Positions 11,544 to 59,204 are shown, numbered from the stretch's first letter. The stretch is DNA of 64,000 nt from an uncultured bacterium (GCA_963696395.1 CAVOJZ010000002.1:363989-427988), one strand, 5' to 3'. A program made the numbers and translations. Notes: generated by a model not told the origin, from the letters alone.

Positions 11544-11570
11544 AAAATTGGAGCCAGACACAGGTCGCTT

Positions 11571-12413: not shown

Positions 12414-12414
12414 G

Positions 12415-18375: not shown

Positions 18376-19265
18376 CTTTCAGGAGCGACGTCGCGCGTAT
18401 CGGTGAGTGGATTGACCAACCACTGCTTCGGCGCAACAACGACCTTGCCCGGATTCCGAGAGAGCCACGCGGCCCACCAAGCAAACGAACTGTTTGGGAT
18501 AATGAAATGCTTACAGAGCGTCATGAGATGAAGGGCATTCGCGCATTCCGGCCCATTATGCTCGTCTCCAACGAACACATGCTCGACATCAATTTTAAAG
18601 TTTTCACGACACCAGTCAATCTCGTCGGATGAGATATAAAATACGGGATTCGAACCCGCTTTCTCTTTCATTATCGCAATCGCACGTTCATAGTACTCCG
18701 GCGTCGCCACGTAATAAAGCTTGCGTAAGCGCTCGAGACGAACCGTTTCTTTTCGTCTGATAAAAAGCGAAACAGCATTTACCTGCGAAATTTGTTTAGC
18801 CAGATCTGCGGTCTTACCCCCAAGCGAAGGACGAAATTTAAAATCTCCCCTAATCTCGGGCTCATATTGATGGAAGTATTTTTCCGACTGGAAATATCCG
18901 TCCAGATAAATATCGCCCTTGAATTTAAAAAAGTCTGGGTTGAAGACATATGGGTTTGAATCTCCGATGTATTGCCACACACCAAGCCCCGCCATCGTAC
19001 GCGCATAAAACTTATTTATTGCTTTGGCCACGTATGGTATGCGCACCCGTGATTGAATCTTAGCGACTGCGGCATAACGCGGGTCGATGGAAAAAACCGT
19101 TGGAAGCCCGTAAGTGCGGATGGGGTTGTCTTTCCAGGGCGTCGGATCGAAAAGCGGCGACGGATCAATTCGCAAACCGTCATTATTGTGGAGCGAAAGT
19201 GCGCGGCCGGCTGCATACTGGAACATCTGATTGCCGAGGCCTCCGTGAATCCGCGCAGTAATCAT
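18360..19265 (-). CDS. glycosyltransferase family 11 (alpha-1,2-fucosyltransferase-like), copy A
   Basis: N-terminal IHGGLGNQMFQYAAG is the GT11 hallmark. Confidence 0.75.
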   Translation of the reverse strand: MITARIHGGLGNQMFQYAAGRALSLHNNDGLRIDPSPLFDPTPWKDNPIRTYGLPTVFSIDPRYAAVAKIQSRVRIPYVAKAINKFYARTMAGLGVWQYIGDSNPYVFNPDFFKFKGDIYLDGYFQSEKYFHQYEPEIRGDFKFRPSLGGKTADLAKQISQVNAVSLFIRRKETVRLERLRKLYYVATPEYYERAIAIMKEKAGSNPVFYISSDEIDWCRENFKIDVEHVFVGDEHNGPECANALHLMTLCKHFIIPNSSFAWWAAWLSRNPGKVVVAPKQWLVNPLTDTRDVAPESWIKI

Positions 19266-19495
19266 GATAGTTAGGGTAGCTTATTTGCAAGAATCTTTCA
19301 AACAATTACGGAACTCGGCGGTCTTCGCTTGAGGCAAAGAGATAATGAGCGGTCGACATGATTCTCAAAATCACCACAGCCACAACATAACGGCTGCGGT
19401 CCGGGACACAGTCTCCCGATTGTGTCCGTTTTTTATTTACAAAAAACCGCCGGGGCAAGATGCCTCGGCGATGCTGTTAAACTGTAAGTTATATT

Positions 19496-20320
19496 TCAGC
19501 TTTTGAGCGCTTCCAGAATGGTGTCTAGCTTCTCCTGGTTGATCGCGGCCACCATGTCGCCGCATCGTTCCGGTGTGCATGGTTTGCCGTTGAAGTCGGT
19601 GATAATGCCACCGGCTTCTTCAATGAGCAGCCACGCCGGCCAATTATCCCACGGCTTATTGCCGACACTCACAAACGCGTCAGCTCTTCCCATCGCAACG
19701 GTCGTGGCGGCAACGCACGTTGACATACCCGGACGCACGGTGATGCGCGACCCAAGCAACGATATCGGCGGCTTGAAGAATTTCTTGGATGACCCTTCAA
19801 GCATCACCACGAGCCGATCCTGCTTCCGTGCCTTTGCGGCATCCAGTCGATGGTACTCACCGTGCTCGCCACACCACTGCCACGCCCCCTCCCCGCGAAC
19901 CGCGTAGAAGAAGCCATTCTTTCGCAGGAAGTGGTCAACCGGTCGGAAAAGCGCCGCATAGACGATATGTTAAGCTTTACGCCGAGCGACCATGCCTCCG
20001 AAAGAGTTCGTGCCCAAGGCGTGATTGCCGGTGCCATCAAGTCCGTCGACCGACCACTGAGGAAAAATACTTTTCAGTATTTCTGTCAGTTCTTCGGCGC
20101 TACGGTTGTCTTCTTCCCCGATGATATCGTCGCCCGGGAAACAGTCACTGATAGTTTTCCTTAACTGGGCAAGCGTGAAATGGTCAAGACTGCCAACGGG
20201 AGTATCGTCCGCCTTAATCTTGGTTGCCATCTCGGCGTGAGCCGTTGCGATATAGTGCGGAGCAAGCGAGTCGAAGCATAGACCCAAAGCTGCCGTCGTT
20301 CTTGTGTATTCACTAAACAC
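19496..20320 (-). pseudogene. inositol monophosphatase/CysQ-family gene disrupted by two frame changes
   Basis: Three consecutive minus-strand ORFs in three frames (20320-19970, 20040-19804, 19810-19496). Together they carry the WSVDGLDGTGN (DPxDGT-like) and WDNWPAWLLIEEAGG (WDxAAG-like) IMPase motifs. A paralog at 31102-31923 is intact. Confidence 0.45.
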
Positions 20321-20367: not shown

Positions 20368-20928
20368 TTACGTCAATTCGATTACCGGAGGATTGTTCTT
20401 ATCAATCAGCGGCCAATTTGCGTCTTTGTCGGAAATGATTGTCGGCGTCTTGAATGGCCATTCGATAGCGAAGAACGGATCATTCCAGCGCAGGCCGCGC
20501 TCGTGCTCGGGCGAATAAGCTTCGGTTACGAAATATTGCAACTCGGAATCATTTTCAAGAACCTGAATGCCGTTCACGCACCCTTTCGGGCAGATCACCA
20601 TATTGAACTTATCCGGAGAAAGTTCAACGGTGAGCCATTGACCGTACGTCGGCGATCCTTTGCGAATATCGGCAACGGCCCAGAAAATCCTGCCGCGGAG
20701 GCATTGCAACATTTTATCCTCTGCTTTCGGAGGCACCTGGTAATGGAGACCTCGCGTCGTGCCTTTCACTTTGCTGAGTGAGCGGTTGATGTGAACAATA
20801 TTGTAGTCGATTCCCTGTTTGGCAAATTCTTCCTTCGCAAAATTCCGCGTGAAATAGCCACGCTCATCCATCCGGGGTTCGAGCTCGATAATCCAGACGC
20901 CGTTAATTTTTGTTTGCGTAAATTTCAT
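20368..20928 (-). CDS. dTDP-4-dehydrorhamnose 3,5-epimerase-like cupin (RmlC family; probably an NDP-6-deoxy-sugar/heptose 3,5-epimerase)
   Basis: MKFTQTKINGVWIIELEPRMDERGYFTRNF is the RmlC N-terminal pattern. The start is taken at the internal ATG at 20928. Confidence 0.65.
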   Translation of the reverse strand: MKFTQTKINGVWIIELEPRMDERGYFTRNFAKEEFAKQGIDYNIVHINRSLSKVKGTTRGLHYQVPPKAEDKMLQCLRGRIFWAVADIRKGSPTYGQWLTVELSPDKFNMVICPKGCVNGIQVLENDSELQYFVTEAYSPEHERGLRWNDPFFAIEWPFKTPTIISDKDANWPLIDKNNPPVIELT

Positions 20929-20992
20929 AGCTTGATCTTCTCGATGATTATACAAATATTACAAAATCGGCGCAATTATTATGCAATCCCCT

Positions 20993-21844
20993 TTATCGAT
21001 ATGACGCAAGCATGGCGCGTATCCCCTTGCGGATATCCACCGCAGGCTTCCATCCGATCTCTTTTTTCACGCGCGAAACTTCGGCATAGAATCCCGTCGC
21101 TTTCCCGCGTCCCGCGATCACTTTCCTGCCGTAGATAATCTCCGCGATCTCCCGCACGCCCGTCACCCTGCCTGATCCAAGATTGAATACCGAACTCTTG
21201 GCGTCCTTTTCGACGAGCATCCGGAGCCCGCGGGCAATGTCGCCCACGTACACAAAATCATTACCGCCGTTCGGATTTTTCACCTGCGGCATTTCACCGC
21301 GAAGCTTGCTCTCGATGAGATGCGGAATAAGCGATGCTGATTTCTGCCCGGGGCCATACACATAAAAAATTCTCCCCCAAACGAAACGCATGCCATAGGC
21401 CTGCGCTGCCGCTGCGCCGATGCGATGCAGAGCGATCTTCGAAGCCGGAAACGGTTTTTCAATTTTGACGGCGTCGTCTTCGCTCACCTTGCCAAGATCC
21501 ACGCCATACTCCCAGCAACTGCCCGTCGCGACAATCTTTTTGCATTTTGCATTGCCAAGTGCGCGGACAAGATTCATGCCGTACACAAGGTTCCGCATGC
21601 TGGCTTCGGGGCCGTAATCGGGGATGCCCTCCCATGCCATATGGAGCGCGGCGTCCGGTTTGAATTTCCTGAGTTGTTTTTCCCATGTGGCGAGTGTCGA
21701 AAGATCGCCGCGAATATAGCTTGTCTTGCGCGAAGGCGTATGCTTGCCACGCGAAAGAACAAGGAGCGTGTGTCCACGCTTCTTCAACTCTTCAACCGCG
21801 TGGCGTCCTACAAATCCAGTTCCGCCGGTTACGAAAATTTTCAT
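20993..21844 (-). CDS. NAD(P)-dependent sugar nucleotide reductase/epimerase (SDR extended family)
   Basis: MKIFVTGGTGFVGRH. Its stop overlaps the start of the upstream gene. Confidence 0.6.
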   Translation of the reverse strand: MKIFVTGGTGFVGRHAVEELKKRGHTLLVLSRGKHTPSRKTSYIRGDLSTLATWEKQLRKFKPDAALHMAWEGIPDYGPEASMRNLVYGMNLVRALGNAKCKKIVATGSCWEYGVDLGKVSEDDAVKIEKPFPASKIALHRIGAAAAQAYGMRFVWGRIFYVYGPGQKSASLIPHLIESKLRGEMPQVKNPNGGNDFVYVGDIARGLRMLVEKDAKSSVFNLGSGRVTGVREIAEIIYGRKVIAGRGKATGFYAEVSRVKKEIGWKPAVDIRKGIRAMLASYR

Positions 21845-23031
21845 GGACGTATGATTGATTTTACCACGCCGAGCAGGTCGCCATTCGATTCCATGAGGAC
21901 GGCTTCGGCGCCCGCGGCCCAGGCGGCTTCCGCATCACGGGGGTCATCGCCAATCATCATTGTTTTCGTGGCGTCAAAATAGTGTTCGTTCGCAGCGCGA
22001 AATATGAGGCCCGGCTTTGGTTTGCGGCAATCGCAATCCTCGTTGAAGCCGTGAGTACAATAATAGGTTCCGGAAAAAACAACACCGGATTTTTTGAGTT
22101 CTTCTTTCATCCGCTCGTCAATGTCATCCAAATCTTTCTGGGCCATGGTTCCCTTCGCGACGCCGGGCTGATTAGAAATGAGATAAAGCTCATATCCGTT
22201 ATCGCGCAAAAGCTTGAGGCCTTCGATTGCATGCGGCAAAAAATGAAATCCGTTCCGTTGCCTCACCTGCTCGCCTTCGGGCGGCCGCTCGTTGATCACG
22301 CCGTCGCGATCGAGAAACATAATTTTCCTCGGTTCGAAAAATTTTTCCGTGATCGGCAACCGCTCAATAGATCCGAGACTGTAATACTGGTGGCTCGTCA
22401 TATATCCGGCGAGTTTGCGCATGGCGATAAGTTTCGGGAACACTTCTTTTTCAAAATGGAAATCTCCCTCTGGAGCAAGATCAAGCACCGCTTTGTCGAG
22501 AATGAGAAAACCGATATCAACGCCGTTCAAGCCCGGCTCCGTCCTGCTCCTGTCGTACTTTGCCACATAGCCGTCTTTATCCACCAACATATTGTTCTTC
22601 GTCGTTTTGGTGTTGTTGTCGAACACAACGACCGACGCCGGCACTTTTTGCTTTTCATAAAATGCCGTCAGATTCTTAAGATCGAGCGGCCAATAGTTGT
22701 CGCAATACATCAGGAGGAAACGGTCGTCGATAAACGGCGCCGCATGCATAAGGCGCGCGCCGGTGTCGTACTCAACCGGAGTAACGTCGTAGGTGATATG
22801 GACGCCAAACTTTGACCCGTCGCCAAAATGGTCCTCGATTTTATCGGGCAGATAGCCGAGCAACATAAGGATCTCCGTAATGCCATTCGCGCGGAGAAGC
22901 TCAACCAAATATTCAAGAAACGGCCGCCCCTGGATGGGAATCATGGGCTTCGGCATGGTGTCCGTGAGCGGACGCATGCGCGTGCCGAGGCCGCCGGCGA
23001 AGATAACCGCCTGTTTTATTTTTTTGCCCAT
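21841..23031 (-). CDS. bifunctional D-glycero-alpha-D-manno-heptose 1-phosphate guanylyltransferase (HddC-like) / D,D-heptose 1,7-bisphosphate phosphatase (GmhB-like HAD) fusion
   Basis: The N-terminal half, QAVIFAGGLGTRMRPLT, is a sugar-1-P nucleotidylyltransferase. The C-terminal half, KIMFLDRDGVINE...YLISNQPGVAKG...GDDPRD, carries the HAD motifs typical of GmhB. Confidence 0.65.
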   Translation of the reverse strand: MGKKIKQAVIFAGGLGTRMRPLTDTMPKPMIPIQGRPFLEYLVELLRANGITEILMLLGYLPDKIEDHFGDGSKFGVHITYDVTPVEYDTGARLMHAAPFIDDRFLLMYCDNYWPLDLKNLTAFYEKQKVPASVVVFDNNTKTTKNNMLVDKDGYVAKYDRSRTEPGLNGVDIGFLILDKAVLDLAPEGDFHFEKEVFPKLIAMRKLAGYMTSHQYYSLGSIERLPITEKFFEPRKIMFLDRDGVINERPPEGEQVRQRNGFHFLPHAIEGLKLLRDNGYELYLISNQPGVAKGTMAQKDLDDIDERMKEELKKSGVVFSGTYYCTHGFNEDCDCRKPKPGLIFRAANEHYFDATKTMMIGDDPRDAEAAWAAGAEAVLMESNGDLLGVVKSIIRP

Positions 23032-24053
23032 TGCAATCCGTCGTCGAGTCGTTGGCCTTCCAAAAGAAAATTAATCTGTTTCAGACGATTGCATGAGCGG
23101 CCCCGGAATTGTTCTTCGGTGAGATTCACTTTCTTGAAAAATTCAACGAGTTCTTTTCCTCCGTTATCCAAATTCCATTGCGGCTTAAAGTAATCCTTGA
23201 GGACGGTAAGAATTTTATCGAAGCTCACGCGATACGTGCGCGAATCGGCTCCGTGCTCGCCGGTAAACTTGAGCTCGCTTCCGGGGACAGCGCGCTGGGC
23301 CGCCTCCGCGAGATTGCGCACGGTGAAATTACCGTTCGGAATACCGACATTGAACGATTGTCCTCCAACGAGGTTTACCGGTGCTTCGAGGCCGGCGATG
23401 TAGGCAGCCGAGACGTCGCGCACGTGCACCACTGGCCGCCACGGCGTGCCGTCGCTCTTGATTTCGATTTTGCCCGTGACGAATGCCGAGCCTACCAGGC
23501 TGTTATAAACGATGTCGGCGCGGAAATTCGGGCTTGCGCCGAAAACGGTTGAAGGGCGCATGCAGACAACCACGAAATCGTTTGAATGTAATTTCTTGAG
23601 CGCGACTTCCGCGTCCCACTTGGTGCGCGCGTAGGCGGTGACGCCATAAGGACCGGCTTCGTCTTCCGAAAGCTCATGGCTCGTATCGGCCATGCCATAC
23701 ATGCTCTGTGAAGAGGAATAGATAAACCGTTTCACGCCGGCCTTCTTGGCGAGCTCCGCAATTTTGAGCGTGCCGCCCAGGTTGATTTCTTCCGTAAGCC
23801 CCGGCTTCAATTCGCCCAGCGGATCGTTCGAAAGCGCGGCGAGGTGGATAATGGCATCGATCCCCTGCACGTCGTCAATGTTTGCGGCGCGGACATCTTT
23901 TGTGATCTGGCGGGTTGGCTTTGCGCCGGCCATTAAATAGCAATCCTCGTAATAACCCGTGTCGAAGCCAACCACTTCGTGCCCTTTGGCCAAAAGCATT
24001 TCTGTGAGTACGGATCCGATATAACCGCGATTGCCGGTAACAAGAATTTTCAT
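23016..24053 (-). CDS. NAD-dependent epimerase/dehydratase family, paralog B
   Basis: MKILVTGNRGYIGS and a YxxxK motif (YARTK). Start at the ATG at 24053. Confidence 0.6.
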   Translation of the reverse strand: MKILVTGNRGYIGSVLTEMLLAKGHEVVGFDTGYYEDCYLMAGAKPTRQITKDVRAANIDDVQGIDAIIHLAALSNDPLGELKPGLTEEINLGGTLKIAELAKKAGVKRFIYSSSQSMYGMADTSHELSEDEAGPYGVTAYARTKWDAEVALKKLHSNDFVVVCMRPSTVFGASPNFRADIVYNSLVGSAFVTGKIEIKSDGTPWRPVVHVRDVSAAYIAGLEAPVNLVGGQSFNVGIPNGNFTVRNLAEAAQRAVPGSELKFTGEHGADSRTYRVSFDKILTVLKDYFKPQWNLDNGGKELVEFFKKVNLTEEQFRGRSCNRLKQINFLLEGQRLDDGLQWAKK

Positions 24054-24143
24054 AATATGGGTACTATAGGATAAAGCGAACGGAAAATAAAGAGGCAGGC
24101 CCGGCAAACAAGCTCAATTTCGTAAATATAGTATACTCCCTTT

Positions 24144-25607
24144 ATGCTTTCGAGGATAAAAAGCTTCCTGTTCCGGAACAGCTCCACCAAGCAAACGGTC
24201 GCCAAAAACACCGTCTGGCTCACCATTTCCAACTTTGGCGGCCGCCTCATAAAAGCCGTCGTCATCATCTATGCCGCCCGCGTGATGGGCGCGGCCGACT
24301 ATGGAGTTTTCTCGTACGCGCTAACGCTTGCCGGGTTTTTCACGCTCCTAATTGATCCGGGGCTGAATGCGGTCATCATGCGCGATGCATCAAAAAGCGA
24401 CGACGAGCGCCGCATTGAAATATTTTCGACGACGGCATTCATCAAATTAGTACTCCTCGTCGTCGGCGTTTTCTTTGTTGTCTTTGTCGCGCCATTCTTC
24501 AGCACGTTGCCGGGAGCCCAAATCCTTCTTCCAATCGTCGCCTTCATTATCGTCTTCGACAATCTGCGCGATTACCTTTTCTGTTTTATCCGCATCCGCG
24601 AAAAGATGGAACTCGAAGCCGGTATCTACCTCGCGATGAATATCGCGATCGTCATCCTGGGATTCATAGCACTCCACGTCCACCCGACACCCCTCAACTT
24701 CGGCCTATCGTACGTTGCCGGCTTATCGCTCGGTTTCCTCGCGGCGCTGTGGACCGCACGCGGATATTTGCCGACCATCTTTTCAAAATTTAAAAAGAGC
24801 ATCATCCGCCCGCTTCTTGAGTCGGCGTGGCCGTTTGCCGTAACGGGCGCGCTGGGTATCCTCCTTACGAATACCGACATCCTCATCATCAGCTGGATGC
24901 GCACGGCGATTGACGTCGGCATCTATTCCGCCGGCATCCGCATCGTCCAGGTGTTCTACCTCATCCCGACCGTGGTGCAATACGCAACACTCCCCTTACT
25001 CGCACGACTTGCGAATAAAGATAATGGAAAATTCAGGACGGTATTTGAGCGGACCATCGGCACCATGTTCCTTCTTTCGATACCGCTCGCGATAGGCGGT
25101 GTCGTGGTGGGCACGCAGGTGATGAGCGCCGTCTTCGGGAGTTCGTATGCAAGCGGCGGTTTGGCTTTCAAGATACTCATGCTTACCATGCTCGTTGATT
25201 TTCCCGCGACCGTCATCGCAAATGCTGTTTTCATCTACAATCGCCAAAAAAGCCTGATCGTCACTTCGGCAATTGCAGGTGTCATGAATATCGTTTTTGA
25301 CCTTATATTGATCCCCCCGTTCGGCATGGCCGGCTCAGCAATTGCAACGCTTATCGCGCAGGGCGCGAGCAACTGGTATCTGTGGAGCACGCTGAAAAAG
25401 ATAAACTACTTTGAGGTTTTGCCGCGCCTCGGCAAGGCTGCGGCCGCCGGCGTTATCATGGGTCTTGCGACGGCGCTGCTCGTAGCTACCGGGCTCAATA
25501 TATTTGTAACCATCCTTATCGGCGCCCTTGTGTATGCGCTCCTCTTATATTTCTTACGCGAACCGTTGTTTTTGGAAATTGGCAAAATAGCGCTCGTCAC
25601 AGAATAA
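24144..25607 (+). CDS. wzx: Wzx-type polysaccharide flippase, copy 2
   Basis: 487 aa. Colinear and clearly homologous with copy 1, with a large fraction of identical positions by eye (for example MLSRIKSFLFRNSSTKQTVAKNTVWLTISNFGGRLIK). Confidence 0.65.
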   Translation: MLSRIKSFLFRNSSTKQTVAKNTVWLTISNFGGRLIKAVVIIYAARVMGAADYGVFSYALTLAGFFTLLIDPGLNAVIMRDASKSDDERRIEIFSTTAFIKLVLLVVGVFFVVFVAPFFSTLPGAQILLPIVAFIIVFDNLRDYLFCFIRIREKMELEAGIYLAMNIAIVILGFIALHVHPTPLNFGLSYVAGLSLGFLAALWTARGYLPTIFSKFKKSIIRPLLESAWPFAVTGALGILLTNTDILIISWMRTAIDVGIYSAGIRIVQVFYLIPTVVQYATLPLLARLANKDNGKFRTVFERTIGTMFLLSIPLAIGGVVVGTQVMSAVFGSSYASGGLAFKILMLTMLVDFPATVIANAVFIYNRQKSLIVTSAIAGVMNIVFDLILIPPFGMAGSAIATLIAQGASNWYLWSTLKKINYFEVLPRLGKAAAAGVIMGLATALLVATGLNIFVTILIGALVYALLLYFLREPLFLEIGKIALVTE

Positions 25608-25709: not shown

Positions 25710-27464
25710 ATGGAAAAAATCAGTGTCGCAAAATATTTGATTTCGCTCATTCCCGGCACTGGCGTCGATACCGTTGGAGTGCTCCAGGGTGGCGCCATCG
25801 CAAAACTTATCGATGAAGTGGGCGAACATCCCGACCTCTCCTATGTTTCGCCCAACCATGAACAGGCGCTTTCCATGATGGTCGAGGCCTATGCCCGCGT
25901 TAAAGGTTTCGGCGTCGGCATGGTTACGAGCGGACCCGGCGCACAGAATCTTGTGACCGGCATCGCCTCCGCCTATTACGATTCCATCCCCTGCCTTTTT
26001 ATAACCGGCCAGGTCGGTATGTTCCACAACAAAGCGAATCGCCGCGTCCGACAGCGTGGCTTCCAGGAAACGGACGTCGTGAGCCTCATGAAGTCGATAA
26101 CGAAATACTCCGTGCTCCTCGACAAACCGGAGGATGCCCGTTACATTTTTGAAAAAGCGGTTCACCTCGCAAAGTCCGGCAGGCCGGGGCCGGTGCTCAT
26201 CGACGTTCCTTTTAACGTTCAACGGGCGCTTGTTGACCCGTCGGAACTCCGCGCCTACAACCCGGAACCAGTCGAGACGTCATCGCCTGCAGAAATCGAC
26301 CATGGCATCACGGAAATCCTCCACGATCTTCAGACAAAAGAAAAGCCGATCATTCTCCTTGGCGGTGGTGTCGAGCTTTCGAAGACCGCAGGAGCGGTGC
26401 GAAAGCTCGTAAAGCACGCGCACGTGCCGGCCGTCGTCACCTGGTGCGCGCTCGATGTTTTTGAAGCGAACGACCCGCTCTATGGCGGCAACGTCGGCCG
26501 TGCCGGCAATAAATCGGCCAATCGGGCAATCCGCGAAGCCGATTTTGTTCTCGCGCTCGGCACCCGGTTTGCAACGAAAGCTATTATCAGCGAAAAAAAC
26601 TTTGCGACGAAAGCAAAAATCACCACCATTGATGCCGACCGTGGCGAACTGGAAGACGGCCTCATCACTTCACACGTCAAAATTCAATCGACGCTCGAAA
26701 AATTTATGCCGCCGCTTCTTGCCGCTGCAGAAAAGGTGAAATTTACGCCGAAGCAGGCATGGCTCGAGGAATTCGCGGCGCTCAAAGCTGACTATTTCCG
26801 CGAAGATAATACGCCGGCCGGAAGTGCCTATGTGAGCCCTTATGAATTCACGGCACGGCTCTCAAAGGCAATGGATCCGAACACGATTATCGTCGGCGAC
26901 ACCGGCACAAACCTTTGCTGGGTCGCACAGGCGTACGAGGCAAAAATCGGCCAACGGTTCTTTTCGTCTTGGGGCAATTCGCCCATGGGATATGCTCTGC
27001 CGGCGTCCATCGGCGCACAGATCGCAGCGAAAGACAAAACGGTTGTCTGCATCACGGGCGACGGCGGCATGCAAATGAATATCCAGGAACTGCAAACGAT
27101 CGCCCTGCATAAATTCCCGGTAAAAGTTTTCGTCTTTAATAATGATTGTTATATGAACGTGAAAGCTCCATCAATCGACGAATTTGAGGGACGGTACCAC
27201 GCGCTCGGCCGGGGCATGGGTTATGCCGCGCCAGATTTCGTAAAAATCGCGAATGCCTACGGCATCGAAGCGTTCTCCATCAAAAAGGGCGACGATTTGG
27301 ACAAGAAAATTCAGCAGGCACTTTCCACGAAGGGGCCGGTTGTGGTTGACCTGAAGCTCGATCCCGATCAGCGTGCCGTCGAGGATAATGCGCTGGTCTC
27401 GCTCCCCGCGTTTGCTGCCCAGCCAAAATCGGGCGCTCCAGCCACTCCGGAAACAAAAAAATAA
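25710..27464 (+). CDS. thiamine-diphosphate-dependent acetolactate-synthase-like enzyme (YerE-like branched-sugar carboligase candidate)
   Basis: Three-domain ALS-like layout: an N-terminal pyrimidine-binding domain, a central LLGGGV domain, and a C-terminal ITGDGGMQMNIQEL...NN ThDP-binding motif (GDG-x24-NN). Confidence 0.65.
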   Translation: MEKISVAKYLISLIPGTGVDTVGVLQGGAIAKLIDEVGEHPDLSYVSPNHEQALSMMVEAYARVKGFGVGMVTSGPGAQNLVTGIASAYYDSIPCLFITGQVGMFHNKANRRVRQRGFQETDVVSLMKSITKYSVLLDKPEDARYIFEKAVHLAKSGRPGPVLIDVPFNVQRALVDPSELRAYNPEPVETSSPAEIDHGITEILHDLQTKEKPIILLGGGVELSKTAGAVRKLVKHAHVPAVVTWCALDVFEANDPLYGGNVGRAGNKSANRAIREADFVLALGTRFATKAIISEKNFATKAKITTIDADRGELEDGLITSHVKIQSTLEKFMPPLLAAAEKVKFTPKQAWLEEFAALKADYFREDNTPAGSAYVSPYEFTARLSKAMDPNTIIVGDTGTNLCWVAQAYEAKIGQRFFSSWGNSPMGYALPASIGAQIAAKDKTVVCITGDGGMQMNIQELQTIALHKFPVKVFVFNNDCYMNVKAPSIDEFEGRYHALGRGMGYAAPDFVKIANAYGIEAFSIKKGDDLDKKIQQALSTKGPVVVDLKLDPDQRAVEDNALVSLPAFAAQPKSGAPATPETKK

Positions 27465-27470
27465 ATAACT

Positions 27471-28319
27471 ATGAAAAAAATATTCATCATCGGCAACCAG
27501 GGCTTCATTGCACGGGAACTCGCGCGGCAGTGCGAAAAGAAAGGTATTGAGTGCGCCGGCGTTGACCTCCCGGTCGACATGCGTGATAAAGATTTCGGAA
27601 AGTATTTATCCGAAGATATTGATGCCATAGTCCATCTCGCCGCCCTTTCAAGGACCCCGGATTGTTCAGGGAAAATGTATGAAACGTTTGACGTAAACGT
27701 CCAGGGCGCATTAAACGTTTTGCGCGCGTCCCGCGAAAAGAAAATCCCTCAATTTATTTTTGCCTCTTCGGAATGGGTTTATCCCGACAGCATGGAAGAA
27801 GTAAGCGAAGATGTTCCTTTGGATATTTTAAAGGCTCCGGCGGAATATGCGCTTTCAAAAATGGTGGCCGAAGCAGCGCTCAAGCAAGACTGGCAGAAAC
27901 ACGGAGGAAACGTAACTATCACGCGCTTTGCGATCGTCTACGGTCCTCGTCCGAAGGAAAAGGTGTGGGTTGCCGTTGAAAGCATCGCAAGTGCCGTGAA
28001 AAACCAGGACACGGTCACCGTTGGATCACTAAAGACAGGACGGAGATTCATCCACGTGGAAGATCTTGCCTTGGGCATCCTTGCAACGCTTGGAACGCCG
28101 AGCTACGAAGTCTTCAACCTTTCCGGACAGAAATTTGTGAGCATGGGAGATATCATCGCCGCCAGCGAGAAGATGTTCGGAAAGAAAGTGAAAATTGAAG
28201 AAAAAGGAGACGCCCCCAGCACGAGAAACCCTTCGAATAAAAAGGCTCACGACGTCCTCGGCTGGAGCCCCCGCATAAGCCTGGAAGAAGGTCTTGAAAG
28301 CGTGAAGCAGTATCTCTAG
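27471..28319 (+). CDS. NAD(P)-dependent SDR-family sugar nucleotide reductase (YerF-like candidate)
   Basis: MKKIFIIGNQGFIAREL and a YxxxK motif (YALSK). It starts 7 nt after the ThDP enzyme. Confidence 0.55.
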   Translation: MKKIFIIGNQGFIARELARQCEKKGIECAGVDLPVDMRDKDFGKYLSEDIDAIVHLAALSRTPDCSGKMYETFDVNVQGALNVLRASREKKIPQFIFASSEWVYPDSMEEVSEDVPLDILKAPAEYALSKMVAEAALKQDWQKHGGNVTITRFAIVYGPRPKEKVWVAVESIASAVKNQDTVTVGSLKTGRRFIHVEDLALGILATLGTPSYEVFNLSGQKFVSMGDIIAASEKMFGKKVKIEEKGDAPSTRNPSNKKAHDVLGWSPRISLEEGLESVKQYL

Positions 28320-28334
28320 AAATTCTTTCCGGAG

Positions 28335-29261
28335 TTGTCCCCTCTCATGCATACAAAAATATTTGCCGCGATCGTCACATTCAATCCCGACGTGGAAAAC
28401 GTACGGAAGGCCGTTGGATTTCTTAAGTCGCAAGTGGACGGCGTATTTCTGTTCGACAATTATTCAAATCCCCAAATCAGAAGCGGCCTCCAGGATGTGG
28501 AACGGGAATTTCCCGGCTTCATGTTCCTCAATTTGAGCCCAAGGCACGAGAACGTCGGCGTGGCGATCAATCAGTGCATTAAGCCGGCGCGCGAGAAGGG
28601 CGCCGAATGGGTCATCTATTTTGATCCCGATAGTTTGGCCTCAACCGATCTTGTTGCCAAGATGCACGAAGCGCACGATGCGATGCCACAGGAAGTGCAG
28701 AAACACATCGGCGCTGTCGCACCGAATCACACCACGCTCAAAGGCCTGGCCTTTCCCCCCGGGAAGCCCTTCTTGACTAATGGAGCGATCATGTCCGGAA
28801 TGCTCATCAAAGCTTCCACCTTCGACAAAATAGGATACGTGAGCGAAATCGTATCTCTCGACGGCGTTGATGGAGAATTCTGCATCCGGATGCAGCGTGC
28901 AGGACTCAAAACACTCACGGTTCCTTCCGTAATTCTCCAAACGACTATCGGCAACCCAACGCTCCGAAAGTTGTTTTGGATAAAAGCCGAGATCCTCAAC
29001 CAGAAACCATATCGTTATTACACGATGGCGCGAAACTTCACCTGGATGTTTGTGCGTAATTACAAAACATACATCATAGGCAATGAAGATTGGCCTTCCG
29101 CAATCTGGGCAGTCATCATTCCCCGCTACATGATAAAGATGCTCTTTTTTGAAGATCGGCGCTGGGAAAAGCTCAAGCTCTATTTTCTTGGCACGTTTGA
29201 CGGCTTGTTCAACCGGATGGAACACGAACGATTGGAGCGCATTCTTAATACCTACGCGTAA
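28335..29261 (+). CDS. glycosyltransferase family 2 (WbbL/rhamnosyltransferase-like)
   Basis: IFAAIVTFNPDVENVRKAVGFLKSQVDGVFLFDNYS...IYFDPDS. Confidence 0.5.
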   Translation: MSPLMHTKIFAAIVTFNPDVENVRKAVGFLKSQVDGVFLFDNYSNPQIRSGLQDVEREFPGFMFLNLSPRHENVGVAINQCIKPAREKGAEWVIYFDPDSLASTDLVAKMHEAHDAMPQEVQKHIGAVAPNHTTLKGLAFPPGKPFLTNGAIMSGMLIKASTFDKIGYVSEIVSLDGVDGEFCIRMQRAGLKTLTVPSVILQTTIGNPTLRKLFWIKAEILNQKPYRYYTMARNFTWMFVRNYKTYIIGNEDWPSAIWAVIIPRYMIKMLFFEDRRWEKLKLYFLGTFDGLFNRMEHERLERILNTYA

Positions 29262-29319: not shown

Positions 29320-29940
29320 CTACTTGGACTTGTCTCTCCTGTCTTCCGCCCGTTTCGCCATGTGGTCGAAATAATCCACGAAATAGAACGTGATGAGATG
29401 GAGGATTGTGCCGTGCACGGACTCCACGACACCGTAATCCCCTTTTTCGGTCTTCACAACGATTTTTGCGTCCGCAAGCTCATTCAATTTCCCGCCGTCA
29501 AAGCCGGACAGACCGATCACCGGGACCTGATGTCGCTTTGCAAGTTCAACCGCTTTGATAACATTTGGCGAATTGCCGCCGCTCGAGATGGCAACGATGG
29601 CATCTGATTCACGGATGTAATTTTCGAGCGGACCCGCGAAAATCATATCGTAGCCGACATCGTTTGCCCATGCTGTAATCTCGGATTCCGTTGAAGGAAG
29701 GCGAATAGCCTGGAAGCGCCGCACGCCCGAGCCAAGGTTGTGGCTGAACACGGTTTTGTTGAAGTCGCTCACCCAGTGCGTGGCCATCGCAAGCGAACCT
29801 CCATTGCCGAAGATATAAATGCGGCCATCGCGCTCATATGTGGCCTGCAAAATATTGACCGCCTTCGCGATCTCCTTCTTGGGGACATCGCGCAAAGCGT
29901 CGATGACCCGGTTTAAAAATATATCGAGATAGGATTCCAT
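29320..29940 (-). CDS. gmhA: phosphoheptose isomerase (SIS domain, GmhA)
   Basis: 206 aa. IYIFGNGGSLAMATHWVSDF and VIGLSGFDGG are the GmhA SIS motifs. Confidence 0.8.
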   Translation of the reverse strand: MESYLDIFLNRVIDALRDVPKKEIAKAVNILQATYERDGRIYIFGNGGSLAMATHWVSDFNKTVFSHNLGSGVRRFQAIRLPSTESEITAWANDVGYDMIFAGPLENYIRESDAIVAISSGGNSPNVIKAVELAKRHQVPVIGLSGFDGGKLNELADAKIVVKTEKGDYGVVESVHGTILHLITFYFVDYFDHMAKRAEDRRDKSK

Positions 29941-29949
29941 ACTTCTATA

Positions 29950-30975
29950 TTACGACATTCGTATCGGCTCGCTCTGATCGTTGTTCAGGAGCACCTCAAC
30001 GCCCGCATGCATGAACCGCACCGGAACCTGCGTGAATTCGGAAAGGTTGTTTTTTGCCGCAGCCGCAGTTACCGCTGCCTTTACCGCCGCTTGTTTCTCA
30101 TACGGCGTCATGAAAAGCACGCATCCGCCGCCGCCCGCACCGAGAATCTTTCCGCCCCATGCACCGGCGTTTTTGCCCGCGTCATACAACGCGTCAATTA
30201 CGGGATTTGAGACATTCGAAGCGAGTGTCTTTTTGGTGACCCACCCTTCGTGCAGCATCTCACCCATGCCTTCAAAATCCCCTTTCTCGAGCCGGTCGCG
30301 GAATTCAAACACCGAGTCCGACATTGCCTTCAAGGATTCCATCTTTTTATCTATATTAGCTTTCTGTTCGGTGAGAACCGATGATGCAAATCGCCGGATG
30401 CCGGTGTAGAAAAGCTGAATGTGGTCCTGAAATGCGCTTTCGATTTTGTAATCGACGTGCACCGGCGTGACGTCAACGCTATGATCGGCATTAAACTGAA
30501 AAATGTTGATGCCGCCGTACGCCGCCGCATACTGATCCTGTTTGCCGATTGGTTCTTTCACCAGATCGATCTCAAGATGCGAGGCGAGCTCGGCGATATT
30601 GCCGACAGAGATCCGCTCCTTTCGCGCGGTAAGAAGCGCCTTCATAAGCGCAACCGAAAAACTCGATGACGACCCGAGCCCCGTTTTTTCCGGGAGGTCG
30701 TTAAACGTCGTTATCGTCATATTGTTCGTGATGCCAAAATGGAGCAATGCCTCCCTGATCCTGTCGTTCTCAATGTCTTTCGCATGATCCACTTCTTCCG
30801 TTTTAAAATACCGCGCGGTCACTTTTTTGAGAAGCGGTGCGCGATTCACCGACACATAGACATATTTGTCGATAGCCGTCGAAATCACACGGCCCGGGTA
30901 CTTGGTATAAAAATCGGCGAGGTCGGTTCCTCCGCCAACAAAGCTGATTCGCATAGGGGCTCGAACGATAATCAT
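29950..30975 (-). CDS. hddA: GHMP-family D-glycero-alpha-D-manno-heptose 7-phosphate kinase (HddA-like)
   Basis: MIIVRAPMRISFVGGGTD and GLGSSSS are the GHMP kinase motifs. It is adjacent to gmhA. Confidence 0.65.
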   Translation of the reverse strand: MIIVRAPMRISFVGGGTDLADFYTKYPGRVISTAIDKYVYVSVNRAPLLKKVTARYFKTEEVDHAKDIENDRIREALLHFGITNNMTITTFNDLPEKTGLGSSSSFSVALMKALLTARKERISVGNIAELASHLEIDLVKEPIGKQDQYAAAYGGINIFQFNADHSVDVTPVHVDYKIESAFQDHIQLFYTGIRRFASSVLTEQKANIDKKMESLKAMSDSVFEFRDRLEKGDFEGMGEMLHEGWVTKKTLASNVSNPVIDALYDAGKNAGAWGGKILGAGGGGCVLFMTPYEKQAAVKAAVTAAAAKNNLSEFTQVPVRFMHAGVEVLLNNDQSEPIRMS

Positions 30976-31101
30976 GGTACCTGCATATAATAGATTAATT
31001 CGTTCTAAAGTCAATAAAATTTGACAAAATTATGATGAATGATATAATCTTTTCCGCACCTTCCAATAAGAAAATAACGGAGCCATCGTTGAGGAGACAA
31101 C

Positions 31102-31923
31102 ATGAAAGAAAGCACATTCGCAACAATTTACGCTACGGGTCTGTATAGGCTTACCCGGGATGCGTTCTGCAATGCAGGAGAACGAATCCTCGAAATCCGC
31201 CGCGAAGGGCTTGCCCCTGAAAGCAAGAAATCATTCCAGGACATCCGGACCAAAGGAGACATTGAAGCCGAATCGCTGCTCACCGCCTTTATAAAACAAA
31301 ACTTTCCGAGCGACGGCATCCAGGGCGAGGAAGGAACCTCTGAGTCTTTAACGGCTGATTACCTTTGGTACTTGGATCCGATCGACGGGACAACAGTCTA
31401 CGCCGCCGGAATGGATTACTTTGGGGTTTCAGGAGGGCGTGCGCAAAGCGGACGAGGCCACTTCGGTATTGTTCGTTTTCCCGCGCTCGGCTACACCGTC
31501 TTCGGCGGAAAATCCGGGGGCGGCTGGATAGATGACGGCACTACGGTCCGACGACTTCGGGAAAAACCCTCTCCCAAAAGCCTGCGCGAATCGACAATCG
31601 TACTCGACCTCAGCATCGACGAAGAGAAGAAATTCCGCGAACCATTTCAACGGGCATGCATGATGATCCTCAAGTTCGGCTCGTGCGTGTTCGAATGCTC
31701 ACTCGTCGCCCGCGGTCTCGTCGGCGGATATCTCAATAAGACCGCAAAGCGGCACGACGCCGCGGCGATATCCGTCATCGGCGAAGCCGAAGGCTGTATC
31801 GTAAACGATCTCGACGGTAAACCGATCGACCTCCGAAACGAGAATGTGCCATTCGCCATGGCCGGCAACCAGGCCATCATGGACGATATGCTCCTTCTCT
31901 ATCATCAGCTCGCGAAGCAATAA
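31102..31923 (+). CDS. inositol monophosphatase / CysQ family phosphatase (intact copy)
   Basis: WYLDPIDGTT and HDAAAISVIGEAEG motifs. A canonical GGAGGAG Shine-Dalgarno sequence lies upstream. Confidence 0.65.
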   Translation: MKESTFATIYATGLYRLTRDAFCNAGERILEIRREGLAPESKKSFQDIRTKGDIEAESLLTAFIKQNFPSDGIQGEEGTSESLTADYLWYLDPIDGTTVYAAGMDYFGVSGGRAQSGRGHFGIVRFPALGYTVFGGKSGGGWIDDGTTVRRLREKPSPKSLRESTIVLDLSIDEEKKFREPFQRACMMILKFGSCVFECSLVARGLVGGYLNKTAKRHDAAAISVIGEAEGCIVNDLDGKPIDLRNENVPFAMAGNQAIMDDMLLLYHQLAKQ

Positions 31924-31977
31924 AACGCTTCCAAAAAATAAACACCCCGTAGACCATGTATCGGTCTACGGGGATTT

Positions 31978-32855: not shown

Positions 32856-34091
32856 TTATCCAAGTTTCACCACATGCGGCTCCTTGGGGAATGGCAAAAC
32901 GCAATCTCCCTTAAATTTGTAGTGATCGGTAAGATGCTTCGTGATTTCGTCTTTAAAGTTCCACGCCATGAGGAAAATACAATCCGGCTTTGTCGCCATC
33001 ACGTCGTCAGATTTCTTGATTGGAATATGCGTACCAGCCGTAAACCTTCCTTGCTTCAGCGGGTTAAGATCGATAACCACGGGCACGATGTCGGTTGTGA
33101 TCCCGCAGAAATTCAACAGCGTTGAGCTGCGTGCGGACGCGCCCCAGCCGGCAATCTTTCGGCCCTTGCTTTTCTCGTCTTTCAAAATTGCCATGAGCCT
33201 GTCGCGATGCGCGATCGAACGTGCGGCAAAATCTTTCCAGCTTGAAAACTCGTTCGTCTTGGCGGCGTTCTCGGCCTGCCGATACTTCACGACATTCATC
33301 GAGGGAGTCACCTCGCCTTTCCGCGCGTAATAGACAAGCGATCCCCCGCTGATGGGACTTTCTGTTATATCAAAGACATAGAGACCGAAATCATTCAACA
33401 GTTTTTCCATACTCTTCACTGTGAAATAACAGAGGTGCTCGTGATAGATGGAGTCGTAGTGAAGTTCATCCAAAATCACTTTCCCGTAGTGGGCTTCGAT
33501 TGCGATCGTACCGGTTTCGCTCACGGACTTCTTCAGGCCTTCGACGAAATCCCGCGTGCCGGCAACATGCGGCAAGACATTGCGGGCAAAAACGATCTCC
33601 GCCTCGCCGTTCGCGGCAACAATATCATCGGCGACCTTCGATCCGAAGAACAAGGGATCGGTCGGGATCCCCGCATCGCGCGCCATTTTGGCGACATTTT
33701 CCGCCGGGTCAATGCCAAGCACCGGAAAATTATTTTTTTGGAACGGGATGAGGAACGTACCGTCGTTGGAAGCGATTTCCAGAACGTATCCCTTTTCGCG
33801 CGCGTGCGGCGTGCGGGATACAGCGGACTCATAGAAAGTCTGCGCATGCTTGTGTGCGGTGAGCGAGGTGCCCGTAAGCCAAAGATAGTGCTTAAAAAGA
33901 ATTTCCGGTTCAATGGTTTCGTTAAGCTGTACCAGAGTGCAATTATGGCAATAACTCAGAGACAATGAGTAGGCGTCGTCTTTCAGGTCAGCCCGATCCG
34001 GCAGGGAATTCGCAAGCGGCTGCTTTCCGAGATCGAAAAATCCCTCGATTTTATTGCTTCCGCAGACACGACAAGAAGAAATTGTTTGCAT
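32856..34091 (-). CDS. NDP-hexose C-methyltransferase (TylCIII/TcaB9-like: N-terminal Zn-ribbon, SAM methyltransferase, C-terminal C-MT domain)
   Basis: N-terminal CRVCGS...CHNCTL zinc ribbon, a class-I methyltransferase core (LEIASNDG), and a total length and layout matching sugar 3-C-methyltransferases. Confidence 0.6.
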   Translation of the reverse strand: MQTISSCRVCGSNKIEGFFDLGKQPLANSLPDRADLKDDAYSLSLSYCHNCTLVQLNETIEPEILFKHYLWLTGTSLTAHKHAQTFYESAVSRTPHAREKGYVLEIASNDGTFLIPFQKNNFPVLGIDPAENVAKMARDAGIPTDPLFFGSKVADDIVAANGEAEIVFARNVLPHVAGTRDFVEGLKKSVSETGTIAIEAHYGKVILDELHYDSIYHEHLCYFTVKSMEKLLNDFGLYVFDITESPISGGSLVYYARKGEVTPSMNVVKYRQAENAAKTNEFSSWKDFAARSIAHRDRLMAILKDEKSKGRKIAGWGASARSSTLLNFCGITTDIVPVVIDLNPLKQGRFTAGTHIPIKKSDDVMATKPDCIFLMAWNFKDEITKHLTDHYKFKGDCVLPFPKEPHVVKLG

Positions 34092-34135
34092 AATTTTCAG
34101 ATTATACCATGAATCGGGGGGTAAAAATCAAGGGG

Positions 34136-35029
34136 CTACAGCCTCGTCCACCCGTCCGGAACCACATCCTCATTCCCCTGTGACGACGGGCTCCATCGCG
34201 CAGGCGCAACCACAATCTTTCCGGGATTTTCATTCAGCCAGGCACCCCACCAGGAAAAACTGCTGTTCGTAATCACGTTATGCTTGCACATCGACATAAG
34301 TTGGAGATGATAGCTTGCCTTTGGCCCTTCCGACGCCCGATCGATATACGTTGTCGGGAATGGAGGTTTTATATTTTCTCTGCACCACGCAATGTCGTCC
34401 GAAAAGATAAAAAACTTAGGATTTTTTACATGTTCATCGATGTAGGCGATTGCTTTGTCATAATAAGAGGAGTTGGTTTCTCCGTAAAGACTAGTGTTCT
34501 TGGGGATTAAATAGTCCGTACGCCGGACATGAAGCGAAACCGAATTTGACTCTCTGATATCTTTCGAGAGATTAAGTGCGTCGCCTTCGAGCGCGTGCTT
34601 AAATCGAAATTCTTTCCGCAATTCCTCTTCGATATCTGCGAAATAGCCAGGCGTCTGCCAGTATCCCCAAATAAGAATATTTCCCCTTGCATCGACGAGG
34701 TTTCGATCGAACACAAGTTCCTGCTTTTCTTTTAAAATTTTCTGGATGCCAAATGAATTTTTGATCTTGAGAAGTCCTAAATCGAGGCCAAGCCAGAGCC
34801 CAGGAACCGACATTGCGGTTGAGAGCTTCGAGAGCGTCGTAAACTTCGGCGTGATGTCAAAAATGTCGAGGTCGTATTCACGAAAGGTGAACTGCTTTCG
34901 TGGAAACCGGTCGTTCAGGTAGGTCGAGTCAATGAGTAAGGGGTCGTTATTTCTTTTTGCAATGCCCAATCCTGCAGCATATTGGAACATCTGATTTCCC
35001 AAACCGCCGCGCAAAAGTACAGTCACCAT
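34136..35029 (-). CDS. glycosyltransferase family 11 (alpha-1,2-fucosyltransferase-like), copy B
   Basis: LLRGGLGNQMFQYAAG is the GT11 hallmark. Confidence 0.75.
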   Translation of the reverse strand: MVTVLLRGGLGNQMFQYAAGLGIAKRNNDPLLIDSTYLNDRFPRKQFTFREYDLDIFDITPKFTTLSKLSTAMSVPGLWLGLDLGLLKIKNSFGIQKILKEKQELVFDRNLVDARGNILIWGYWQTPGYFADIEEELRKEFRFKHALEGDALNLSKDIRESNSVSLHVRRTDYLIPKNTSLYGETNSSYYDKAIAYIDEHVKNPKFFIFSDDIAWCRENIKPPFPTTYIDRASEGPKASYHLQLMSMCKHNVITNSSFSWWGAWLNENPGKIVVAPARWSPSSQGNEDVVPDGWTRL

Positions 35030-35039
35030 GTCGTTGCTG

Positions 35040-37012
<1,973 letters not shown>

Positions 37013-59192: not shown

Positions 59193-59204
59193 TCCCCATC
59201 ATCC

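Follow-up and report, generated by a model that had tools for sequence, protein, structure and literature searches.

A probable YerE-like carboligase and its conserved SDR partner in a surface-glycan gene cluster of an uncultured bacterium

The gene pair and its surroundings

The DNA considered here is a single window of 64,000 nucleotides from an uncultured bacterium (GCA_963696395.1 CAVOJZ010000002.1:363989-427988), in which all positions are counted from the first letter. A glycan cluster occupies this window from roughly 3 to 39 kb and includes genes for a priming transferase, two Wzx proteins, a Wzy protein, GT2 and GT11 glycosyltransferases, methyltransferases and many short-chain dehydrogenases/reductases (SDRs). 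Our subject is a pair of genes within it, one for a thiamine diphosphate (ThDP)-dependent enzyme that resembles acetolactate synthases and one for an SDR of 282 residues, called SDR282 below. An earlier note on this DNA had likened the pair to YerE and YerF of yersiniose A synthesis and had proposed that it makes a C-branched sugar for the surface glycan. The pair, the elements of interest within it and the genes on either side are as follows.

24144-25607, plus strand: Wzx-type (MOP) flippase, with PF01943 and PF13440, directly upstream of the ThDP gene
25710-27464, plus strand: ThDP-dependent carboligase of the decarboxylase superfamily, most probably of its YerE-like, ketone-accepting branch; 584 amino acids, ATG start, three domains
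26022-26039, plus strand: within the carboligase gene, six inserted residues (about F105-N110) that come after TGQV and before the clade motif VRQRGFQE, as seen in alignments
27057-27143, plus strand: within the carboligase gene, the GDG-x24-NN motif that binds ThDP/Mg2+, amino acids 450-478
27471-28319, plus strand: SDR282, an extended SDR of 282 amino acids, ATG start; PF01370 Epimerase, E = 2e-33
28335-29261, plus strand: GT2/rhamnosyltransferase-like glycosyltransferase (TIGR01556, 95 bits; PF00535 weak), closing the run of Wzx, ThDP gene, SDR and glycosyltransferase

Both reading frames lie where the earlier note had put them, between a flippase and a glycosyltransferase, and both of the motifs that it had picked out in the ThDP enzyme are present, the second being the central GGGV at amino acid 218 (nt 26361). 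The SDR gene does follow closely, although the gap is not of 7 nt: the ThDP gene ends with TAA at 27462-27464, a spacer of 6 nt (ATAACT) follows, and the ATG of SDR282 stands at 27471, the figure of seven being the difference between start and stop positions. The ThDP enzyme matches all three Pfam domains of its superfamily (TPP_enzyme_N, E = 1e-24; TPP_enzyme_M, 2e-25; TPP_enzyme_C, 7e-44), and these matches, like that of SDR282, are far beyond chance. The catalytic glutamate is present as Glu51 and, together with G450-D451-G452...N478, is invariant in 45 of 45 sampled members of the clade to which the enzyme belongs. SDR282 carries a Rossmann motif, GNQGFIA, with SSEW and YALSK further on. 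The glycosyltransferase that closes the run is a candidate for the transferase of the modified sugar. A scan of the window for promoters and terminators gave no signal above shuffled background, so that an operon is not defined by it.

Placement of the ThDP-dependent enzyme

It is most likely that the ThDP enzyme belongs to the YerE-like lineage of ketone-accepting carboligases and is not an anabolic acetohydroxyacid synthase (AHAS); the tree, the insertion, the predicted fold and the missed family cut-offs all point this way. Amongst solved structures its closest relative is 8rph (E = 6e-89), followed by 5ahk (2e-78), with true AHAS enzymes at 6e-77 or weaker. JanthE, whose structure is 8rph, has been characterised as a YerE-like enzyme joining 2-oxo acids to ketones (PMC12188165, PMC12247030). 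The source of 5ahk is Pseudomonas protegens Pf-5; the proteins that match it exactly or at 83% identity come from Pseudomonas, and 67%-identical orthologs occur in many Yersinia species. On these matches we take 5ahk and its Pseudomonas and Yersinia orthologs to be the YerE-proper group; PpYerE, the P. protegens protein of 5ahk, has been cited as a YerE homolog (PMC12247030), and YerE has been described as a flavoprotein dependent on thiamine pyrophosphate (PMC4753412).

The six-residue insertion after TGQV is common to the query, the 45 sampled clade members, JanthE, 5ahk and the Yersinia YerE ortholog, and it is absent from the E. coli IlvB and IlvI proteins, plant AHAS, Gcl and PoxB in our alignments. 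An RQxGFQE-type motif follows it in every insertion-bearing sequence except JanthE, which has a divergent RMWGVQG, and within the query clade R114, Q115, G117, Q119 and E120 are invariant (45 of 45). The loop of the query is basic, with K108, R111, R112, R114 and R116. It should be noted that the combination of insertion and RQxGFQE was derived in this analysis and is not a published definition.

Trees were built by neighbour-joining only, with 100 bootstraps, few outgroups and the assumption that the root is outside the YerE-like group. In 100 of 100 bootstraps they set the query clade, together with JanthE and YerE-proper, apart from AHAS, Gcl and PoxB, and the query clade was joined to JanthE in 89-92 of 100. 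A phylogeny against YerE and acetolactate synthases, which the earlier note had named as a check, therefore puts the enzyme on the YerE-like side, in trees that set it against AHAS, Gcl and PoxB and included no sulfoacetaldehyde acetyltransferase (Xsc) sequences. Clustering with AHAS beside an ilvN gene, which the same note had named as the contrary outcome, is likewise not what is found: the enzyme falls outside AHAS, and domain and family scans of the 64-kb window detect no ilvN/ilvH, ilvC, ilvD or other ilv gene.

An AlphaFold2 model of the enzyme (pLDDT 92, with the insertion loop lower at 78-81) matches JanthE chains best (TM 0.89-0.91, rmsd about 2.1 Å), with AHAS structures at TM 0.83-0.87. 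JanthE, from Janthinobacterium sp. HH01 (8rph, 8rpi and 8rpj), is thus the solved relative nearest to the query by both sequence and fold and shares the position of the insertion; yet it is only 31% identical to the query, has CDG where the query has GDG (PMC12188165, PMC12247030), and its insertion loop is divergent (AGNENSKFTFPENPLRMWGVQG in JanthE, TGQVGMFHNKANRRVRQRGFQE in the query).

The AHAS large subunits (IlvB, IlvG, IlvI and plant AHAS) have in common with the query the three-domain ThDP fold, the catalytic glutamate and GDG-x24-NN, at about 31% identity. They lack the insertion, and the query has other residues in place of their acceptor-site and FAD-region motifs; no regulatory-subunit gene lies near it in the window. 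In the multiple alignment, the AHAS motifs GxDAFQE, GMLGMHG, VGQHQMW and SGGLGTMGF, the arginine of RFDDR and the specificity tryptophan of QW have all given way, the query residues at these sites being VRQRGFQE, GNVGRAGN, TGTNLCW, SWGNSPMGY, RFATK and NVKAPS. The RFDDR arginine, the QW tryptophan, GMLGMHG and VGQHQMW are generally known as acceptor-site elements of AHAS. The central-domain motifs, too, are unlike those of AHAS. Identity as an AHAS was rejected on the curated cut-offs, the motifs, the tree and the gene context. Phosphonopyruvate or sulfopyruvate decarboxylase was dismissed as well, such enzymes being without the central domain; in one homologous locus (L012, below) a separate two-domain Ppd in fact adjoins a member of the ThDP clade.

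The ThDP family co-occurs with SDR282-type and heptose-type genes

The cluster also encodes a set of sugar-activating and sugar-modifying enzymes.

20368-20955, minus strand: RmlC-like cupin 3,5-epimerase, of a kind that acts on 4-keto sugar nucleotides (PF00908, E = 4e-57)
20993-21844, minus strand: Rmd/GalE-like SDR of 283 amino acids, a second small SDR found repeatedly with the ThDP gene
21841-23031, minus strand: fusion of an HddC-like sugar-1-phosphate nucleotidyltransferase and a GmhB-like HAD phosphatase, from Pfam, NCBIfam and PDB matches (6jq8/5xhw, HddC-type; 2gmw, GmhB)
23016-24107, minus strand: Cj1427-like C4 oxidoreductase SDR (SDR363/SDR345), with 6vo6/6vo8 as best PDB match (112 bits, against 77 or less for others)
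29320-29940, minus strand: GmhA-like SIS-domain sugar-phosphate isomerase (best match TIGR00441, 96 bits; cut-off 209)
29950-31014, minus strand: HddA-like GHMP anomeric kinase (best match NF049969, 156 bits, under the cut-off; the next, fucokinase, 84 bits)

The best family or structure matches of the activation genes are heptose enzymes (GmhA, 96 bits; HddA, 156 bits; GmhB, 133 bits for the fusion protein; HddC-type structures), all of them under the equivalog cut-offs. 4,6-Dehydratases carry an acidic (Asp/Glu) pair at the site where the 23016-24107 SDR has SSSQSMYG. Because this motif lacks the pair, the protein, which also has YARTK, looks like a C4 oxidoreductase, and its identity as a 4,6-dehydratase was rejected. 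We take its best match, 6vo6, to be Campylobacter jejuni Cj1427, a GDP-heptose C4-dehydrogenase, with which the title of the entry agrees. The chemistry of GDP-heptose C4 oxidation has been described (PMC10680097), and we propose from the sequence matches that this SDR generates an NDP-4-keto-heptose acceptor, NDP standing for a nucleoside diphosphate. As a mechanical reading frame the gene begins with TTG and encodes 363 residues; the probable true start is Met19 (nt 24053), giving 345 residues, as suggested by alignment with 6vo6 and with 345-residue homologs, and the exact 363-residue sequence is not in the protein collection. The 20993-21844 SDR may be a C4 reductase or a C4 oxidase. The epimerase matches RmlC structures at 3e-39 and GDP-4-keto-heptose epimerases at 1e-12.

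The same types of enzyme as in the window (GmhA, HddA, HddC, GmhB, a Cj1427-type SDR, an epimerase and small SDRs) make up the GDP-heptose pathways of C. jejuni (PMC10680097). Those pathways have no ThDP enzyme and end with C4 reduction, unlike the cluster described here, and the window epimerase is nearer to the dTDP-type RmlC than to the C. jejuni-type GDP-heptose epimerases.

The exact ThDP protein was found in one NCBI genome and one read assembly. Every homolog, down to 39% identity, has a score well above that of JanthE, and at least 120 clusters (at 90% identity) reach 447 bits or more. We inspected thirteen other loci around ThDP homologs (L002-L012, L017 and L018), with a Yersinia locus, L019, for comparison. 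Co-occurrence of the ThDP family with the SDR282 family and with heptose-type genes is a plain observation across these loci. Orthologs of SDR282, 35-52% identical, stand directly beside the ThDP gene in L003, L004, L006, L008 and L011 and have in common the motifs FASSEWVY, EYAxSK and RFGIIYGPR; the earlier note's reductase beside the ThDP gene is in this sense a conserved and orthologous pairing of a PF01370 SDR. Along with the ThDP gene, those for the GHMP kinase, SIS isomerase, NTP-transferase/HAD fusion, RmlC-like epimerase and SDR345 are found again in L005 and L006 (69% each) and L008 (53%), the last two of which also have an SDR282-type gene, and in L006 the complete set points the same way in a single run with SDR-SDR-ThDP-GT2 at its end. 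In L005 and L006 the orthologs of the window's Cj1427-like SDR, isomerase, kinase, epimerase and fusion are 56-75% identical. The most conserved neighbour is the Cj1427-like SDR (73-75% in L005 and L006, 54% in L010), alongside the GmhA-like isomerase (63-74%) and the RmlC-like epimerase (64-70%) in L005 and L006; the HddC-GmhB fusion is conserved in L005, L006, L008 and L010.

Subsets of these gene types occur in L008, in L010 (40%) and L011 (43%), in L007 and L018 (51-52%) and in the Giovannonibacteria locus L002 (53%), so that the heptose-type association is still seen at 40-43% ThDP identity. A GHMP kinase lies near the ThDP homolog in eight of the thirteen other loci. L007 and L018 have an SDR of the 20993-21844 type directly upstream of the ThDP gene, L005 and L006 have one too, and a TylC3-type C-methyltransferase is found near the homologs in L002, L005, L008, L010 and L018. 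A GT2 gene follows the ThDP gene in L005, L006 and L019 too, though it is not orthologous to that at 28335-29261.

In L002 a class-I/II aminotransferase (11483-12640) directly follows the ThDP gene, in the place of the SDR, and in L007 (13549-14706) and L018 (14322-15488) one stands one gene further downstream. This suggests that these three loci specify amino-branched variants. In other known systems acyl-branch ketones are reduced or transaminated (PMC12247030), fates with which the carbonyl-acting genes beside the ThDP gene, be they SDR or aminotransferase, would by analogy agree. The glycan cluster of L011 contains two radical-SAM enzymes, of which one has a B12-binding domain, together with a split transketolase (8056-9099 and 16192-19519); the last is a second ThDP-dependent C-C enzyme beside the 43%-identical homolog.

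Readings of the pair and their meaning

We propose that the ThDP enzyme adds an acyl branch to an NDP-4-keto-heptose and that the ketone on this branch is then reduced, a reading that we regard as about an even call. We infer the donor, the acceptor, the nucleotide, the carbon attacked, the order of the steps and the role of each SDR as follows. A ketose phosphate, most likely sedoheptulose-7-phosphate, would be isomerised by the GmhA-like enzyme and phosphorylated at C1 by the HddA-like kinase; the HddC-GmhB fusion would then dephosphorylate and nucleotidylate it to an NDP-heptose. The Cj1427-like SDR would oxidise C4 to give the NDP-4-keto-heptose, in which the RmlC-like enzyme may epimerise C3 and C5. 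The ThDP enzyme would decarboxylate a 2-oxo acid and direct the acyl carbanion at the C4 carbonyl, giving a tertiary alcohol with an acetyl branch; pyruvate is the default donor because no aldolase is encoded nearby, domain and family scans finding none in the 64-kb window. SDR282, the proposed branch-carbonyl reductase by analogy with known systems, would reduce the ketone to a 1-hydroxyethyl group. The GT2-like enzyme would move the branched sugar to a lipid-linked repeat unit, which Wzx would flip. More broadly, a C-branched sugar for the surface glycan, as the earlier note had it, is the best reading of the pair, given the YerE-like placement, the conserved SDR pairing and the presence in the cluster of enzymes that form NDP-4-keto sugars; the note had made its case depend on such enzymes, and the cluster encodes the Cj1427-like SDR, a predicted one, and a GDP-mannose 4,6-dehydratase (Gmd).

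That the pair forms the canonical yersiniose module, with YerE and YerF acting on a CDP-4-keto-3,6-dideoxyhexose, is very improbable. The Yersinia aleksiciae locus L019 has, in order, an E3-like reductase, a nucleotidyltransferase, a 4,6-dehydratase, a DegT-type E1, YerE, a 310-residue PF01370 SDR, GtrA and GT2, and the core order of ThDP gene, PF01370 SDR and GT2 within a surface-glycan cluster is that of the window; the query and the Yersinia YerE lineage also have the insertion and RQxGFQE in common, at 33% identity (E = 8e-81) to the Y. aleksiciae ortholog. On the other side, YerE-proper (the 5ahk, Pseudomonas and Yersinia members) forms its own clade in 100 of 100 bootstraps with the query outside it, at 31-33% identity. 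The DdhA-D-type supply genes of L019 are missing from the window, where we find no glucose-1-phosphate cytidylyltransferase, CDP-glucose 4,6-dehydratase, E1 (DegT-type) or E3 (Fer2/FAD_binding_6) gene in 64 kb. BLASTP detects no similarity between SDR282 and the Yersinia SDR in the YerF position (E = 0.28), and tblastn of the latter against the window and all fetched loci matched only itself, so that SDR282 was rejected as a YerF ortholog. The partner pathway conserved with the query enzyme is of heptose type, as against Ddh type in Yersinia. With the supply genes, the YerF homolog and the YerE-proper clade all wanting, the canonical module is effectively refuted for this locus; of the likeness drawn in the earlier note, the wider YerE-like lineage of the ThDP enzyme holds, and the kinship of SDR282 with YerF and the CDP-3,6-dideoxyhexose substrate of yersiniose A type do not. 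The ErwE, MMAR_2332 and MygE modules (erwiniose, caryophyllose and gastriose) share the logic of a glycan cluster that pairs a ThDP carboligase with an NAD(P)H reductase (PMC9306805); in their clusters an aldolase, such as ErwI, builds a long 2-oxo-acid donor and the acceptor is a CDP-dideoxy sugar, which, rather than a direct sequence comparison, sets the aldolase-free window apart. An ordinary anabolic or catabolic acetolactate synthase, lying in a glycan cluster by chance, is hardly credible. The highest-scoring NCBIfam model is indeed TIGR00118 for biosynthetic AHAS, and homologs carry the public label 'acetolactate synthase large subunit'; but the score is 389 bits against a cut-off of 538, the enzyme is further below the cut-offs of the other AHAS, AlsS, Gcl and Xsc models, every equivalog cut-off being missed, the AHAS active-site signatures are replaced, and the YerE-type insertion, the split from AHAS in all bootstraps, the missing ilvN, ilvC and ilvD, and a glycan-gene context kept across phyla stand against it. 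So does the host, which is, as argued below, a bacterium of the candidate phyla radiation (CPR). CPR genomes are usually without branched-chain amino-acid synthesis, which fits a role other than that of AHAS. An Xsc tied to sulfo-sugar metabolism, the alternative raised in the earlier note, is next to impossible. The window does hold a UDP-sulfoquinovose-synthase-like (SqdB-like) gene, outside the glycan cluster:

57942-60353, plus strand: UDP-sulfoquinovose-synthase-like gene (57942-59192; 255 bits, cut-off 575), then a class-V aminotransferase

This sole candidate, itself under its own cut-off, is 30 kb distant, with housekeeping genes (those for RNase Y, RNase J and three aminoacyl-tRNA synthetases) between it and the cluster; pta and sulfite-handling genes are not nearby, and the Xsc model NF005713 gives the ThDP enzyme 223 bits against a cut-off of 620, below the AHAS models.

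Two further readings keep the YerE-like chemistry or its relatives but change the substrate. The acceptor might be GDP-4-keto-6-deoxymannose, made by a Gmd encoded 8.5 kb downstream within the following group of genes.

32856-34091, minus strand: TylC3-type NDP-sugar C-methyltransferase (PF08421, PF08484, PF13489)
34136-35029: GT11 glycosyltransferase, with Gmd and the Fcl-like SDR
35040-35984: Fcl-like SDR, beside Gmd
35993-37012, minus strand: GDP-mannose 4,6-dehydratase (Gmd; TIGR01472, 525 bits, cut-off 415), an alternative 4-keto source

The product would then be a 4-C-acyl-6-deoxyhexose, yersiniose-like but with the 3-hydroxyl kept. Gmd is above its curated cut-off, and a 4-keto-6-deoxyhexose is chemically the closest in the cluster to the known substrate of YerE (PMC9306805). 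We nevertheless consider this distinctly unlikely: Gmd, the Fcl-like SDR and the fucosyltransferase-family GT11 gene make up an ordinary fucose set, and the loci L005, L008, L010, L011 and L018 show heptose-type genes, but no Gmd, near their ThDP homologs. Unlikely, if with some claim to attention, is another carboligase or decarboxylase role, such as lengthening a chain at a sugar aldehyde, attacking C3 or making a non-sugar acyloin substituent for the glycan. In its favour are an uncharacterised subclade 31% identical to YerE proper, the failure of some predicted YerE-like enzymes to accept ketones in vitro (PMC12247030) and two of the homologous loci. In the Candidatus Pelagibacter metagenome-assembled genome NZIO01000025.1 (L003:9098-13498), an SDR-ThDP-SDR cassette precedes an EamA-family transporter between recG and housekeeping genes of cell-wall or replication function, and the ThDP copy in L017 is isolated from sugar genes. 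Yet the repeated tight linkage to the Cj1427-like SDR, RmlC-like epimerase and TylC3-like C-methyltransferase points to an NDP-ketosugar substrate, and the nearest characterised relatives accept ketones (PMC12188165, PMC12247030).

Several observations weigh against the proposed branching of an NDP-4-keto-heptose followed by reduction. As the GmhA-, HddA- and HddC-like proteins are under their equivalog cut-offs, the activated sugar may not be a heptose, and the two small SDRs and the RmlC-like gene would be enough for an unbranched modified heptose made without the ThDP enzyme. The conserved SSEW motif of SDR282 is atypical, and its description as a branch ketoreductase is by analogy only; co-transcription of the two genes we infer from spacing only. 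Since the raw identity of the query is equal, at 31%, to YerE-proper, JanthE and AHAS, its placement rests on the rooted topology and one indel, and the trees left out YpYerE, ErwE and MMAR_2332 as well as Xsc. Ketone acceptance has not been shown in vitro for MygE, RhopE and SpirE, themselves predicted to be YerE-like (PMC12247030). Some homologous loci also fit poorly, L003, L009, L012 and L017 having no heptose genes close to the ThDP gene: sugar-activation genes and glycosyltransferases are not near the cassette in L003; the clade member in L012 is beside phosphonate and sulfation genes; and the 52%-identical homolog in L017 is surrounded by IS66-transposase, Rep3 replication and AbiEi-like genes, with no sugar genes, in what looks like a mobile element or plasmid. 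In L009 a PanB-like gene of the ketopantoate hydroxymethyltransferase family (11764-12603) directly follows a 41%-identical homolog; it may, by analogy with the erwiniose and caryophyllose aldolases, build a hydroxymethylated 2-oxo-acid donor.

Other features of the cluster bear on its sugars. The TylC3-type C-methyltransferase may act on the same 4-keto intermediate as the ThDP enzyme or on a parallel one. Together, the grouped genes at 32856-37012 on the minus strand could make fucose and a 3-C-methyl-6-deoxyhexose (virenose- or evalose-like), and the cluster may encode two different kinds of C-branched sugar. It has two Wzx flippases (10062-11543 and 24144-25607), about 60% identical over the half of Wzx2 present in locus L001, and two GT11 glycosyltransferases (18360-19265 and 34136-35029), a doubling that suggests two repeat-unit pathways or a duplicated module. 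An IMPase-family gene (31102-31923) is preceded by a sigma-70-type promoter match (31021-31048, a perfect 12/12 with TG) and followed by a strong bidirectional hairpin terminator (31945-31973); L005 likewise has an IMPase-family gene close to its ThDP gene. A 743-residue protein with an LCAT (lecithin:cholesterol acyltransferase) domain, unusual in bacteria, is encoded at the cluster's edge (7769-10000, minus strand). An Rfam scan of the window found two tRNAs only.

The host is identified through its isoleucyl-tRNA synthetase (IleRS; 48412-51981, minus strand, 1189 residues), in which a histidine-phosphatase domain (PF00300) is inserted at about residues 510-676. The best 120 relatives, 57-80% identical, all have the same insertion, and those that bear a name belong to Candidatus Paceibacterota, Parcubacteria or Patescibacteria; the insertion is therefore a lineage-wide trait, and the host is assigned to the CPR (Paceibacterota). 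Its contig of 913 kb is about as large as a genome, and the glycan cluster occupies about 36 kb of these roughly 0.9 Mb.

What is familiar in this system is the lineage of the enzyme and its logic; it departs from known systems in its subclade, its SDR partner and, probably, its acceptor scaffold, and it occurs in an unusual phylum. As to the earlier note's remark that acetolactate-synthase-like enzymes are rare in glycan loci, a review counts over 200 predicted gene clusters of YerE-like type (PMC12247030). Full-text literature searches, which did not cover the 2024 survey of these clusters, gave no link between YerE-like enzymes and heptose pathways. More generally, though here we are tentative and lean towards doubt, a widespread uncharacterised YerE-like subclade in CPR/Paceibacterota, SAR11 and other uncultured lineages might build undescribed C-branched higher sugars on NDP-4-keto-heptose, namely 4-C-acyl, 4-C-(1-hydroxyethyl) or 4-C-(1-aminoethyl) heptoses of at least nine carbons, with SDR or aminotransferase partners of its own in the place of YerF.

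If the proposal is correct, ThDP-dependent sugar branching would be extended from the CDP-3,6-dideoxyhexose scaffold, studied so far in Gram-negative and mycobacterial systems, to a heptose-type scaffold with a different reductase partner. A systematic mis-annotation would be corrected, the label 'acetolactate synthase large subunit' being one that could wrongly imply branched-chain amino-acid synthesis in reduced genomes, and the family, with its 120 or more clusters, would offer a large pool of candidate ketone-accepting carboligases of interest for chiral tertiary alcohols. It would also place branching chemistry in the surface glycans of ultra-small CPR bacteria and of marine SAR11, whose envelope glycans, essentially unknown, probably mediate host attachment and interactions with phages.

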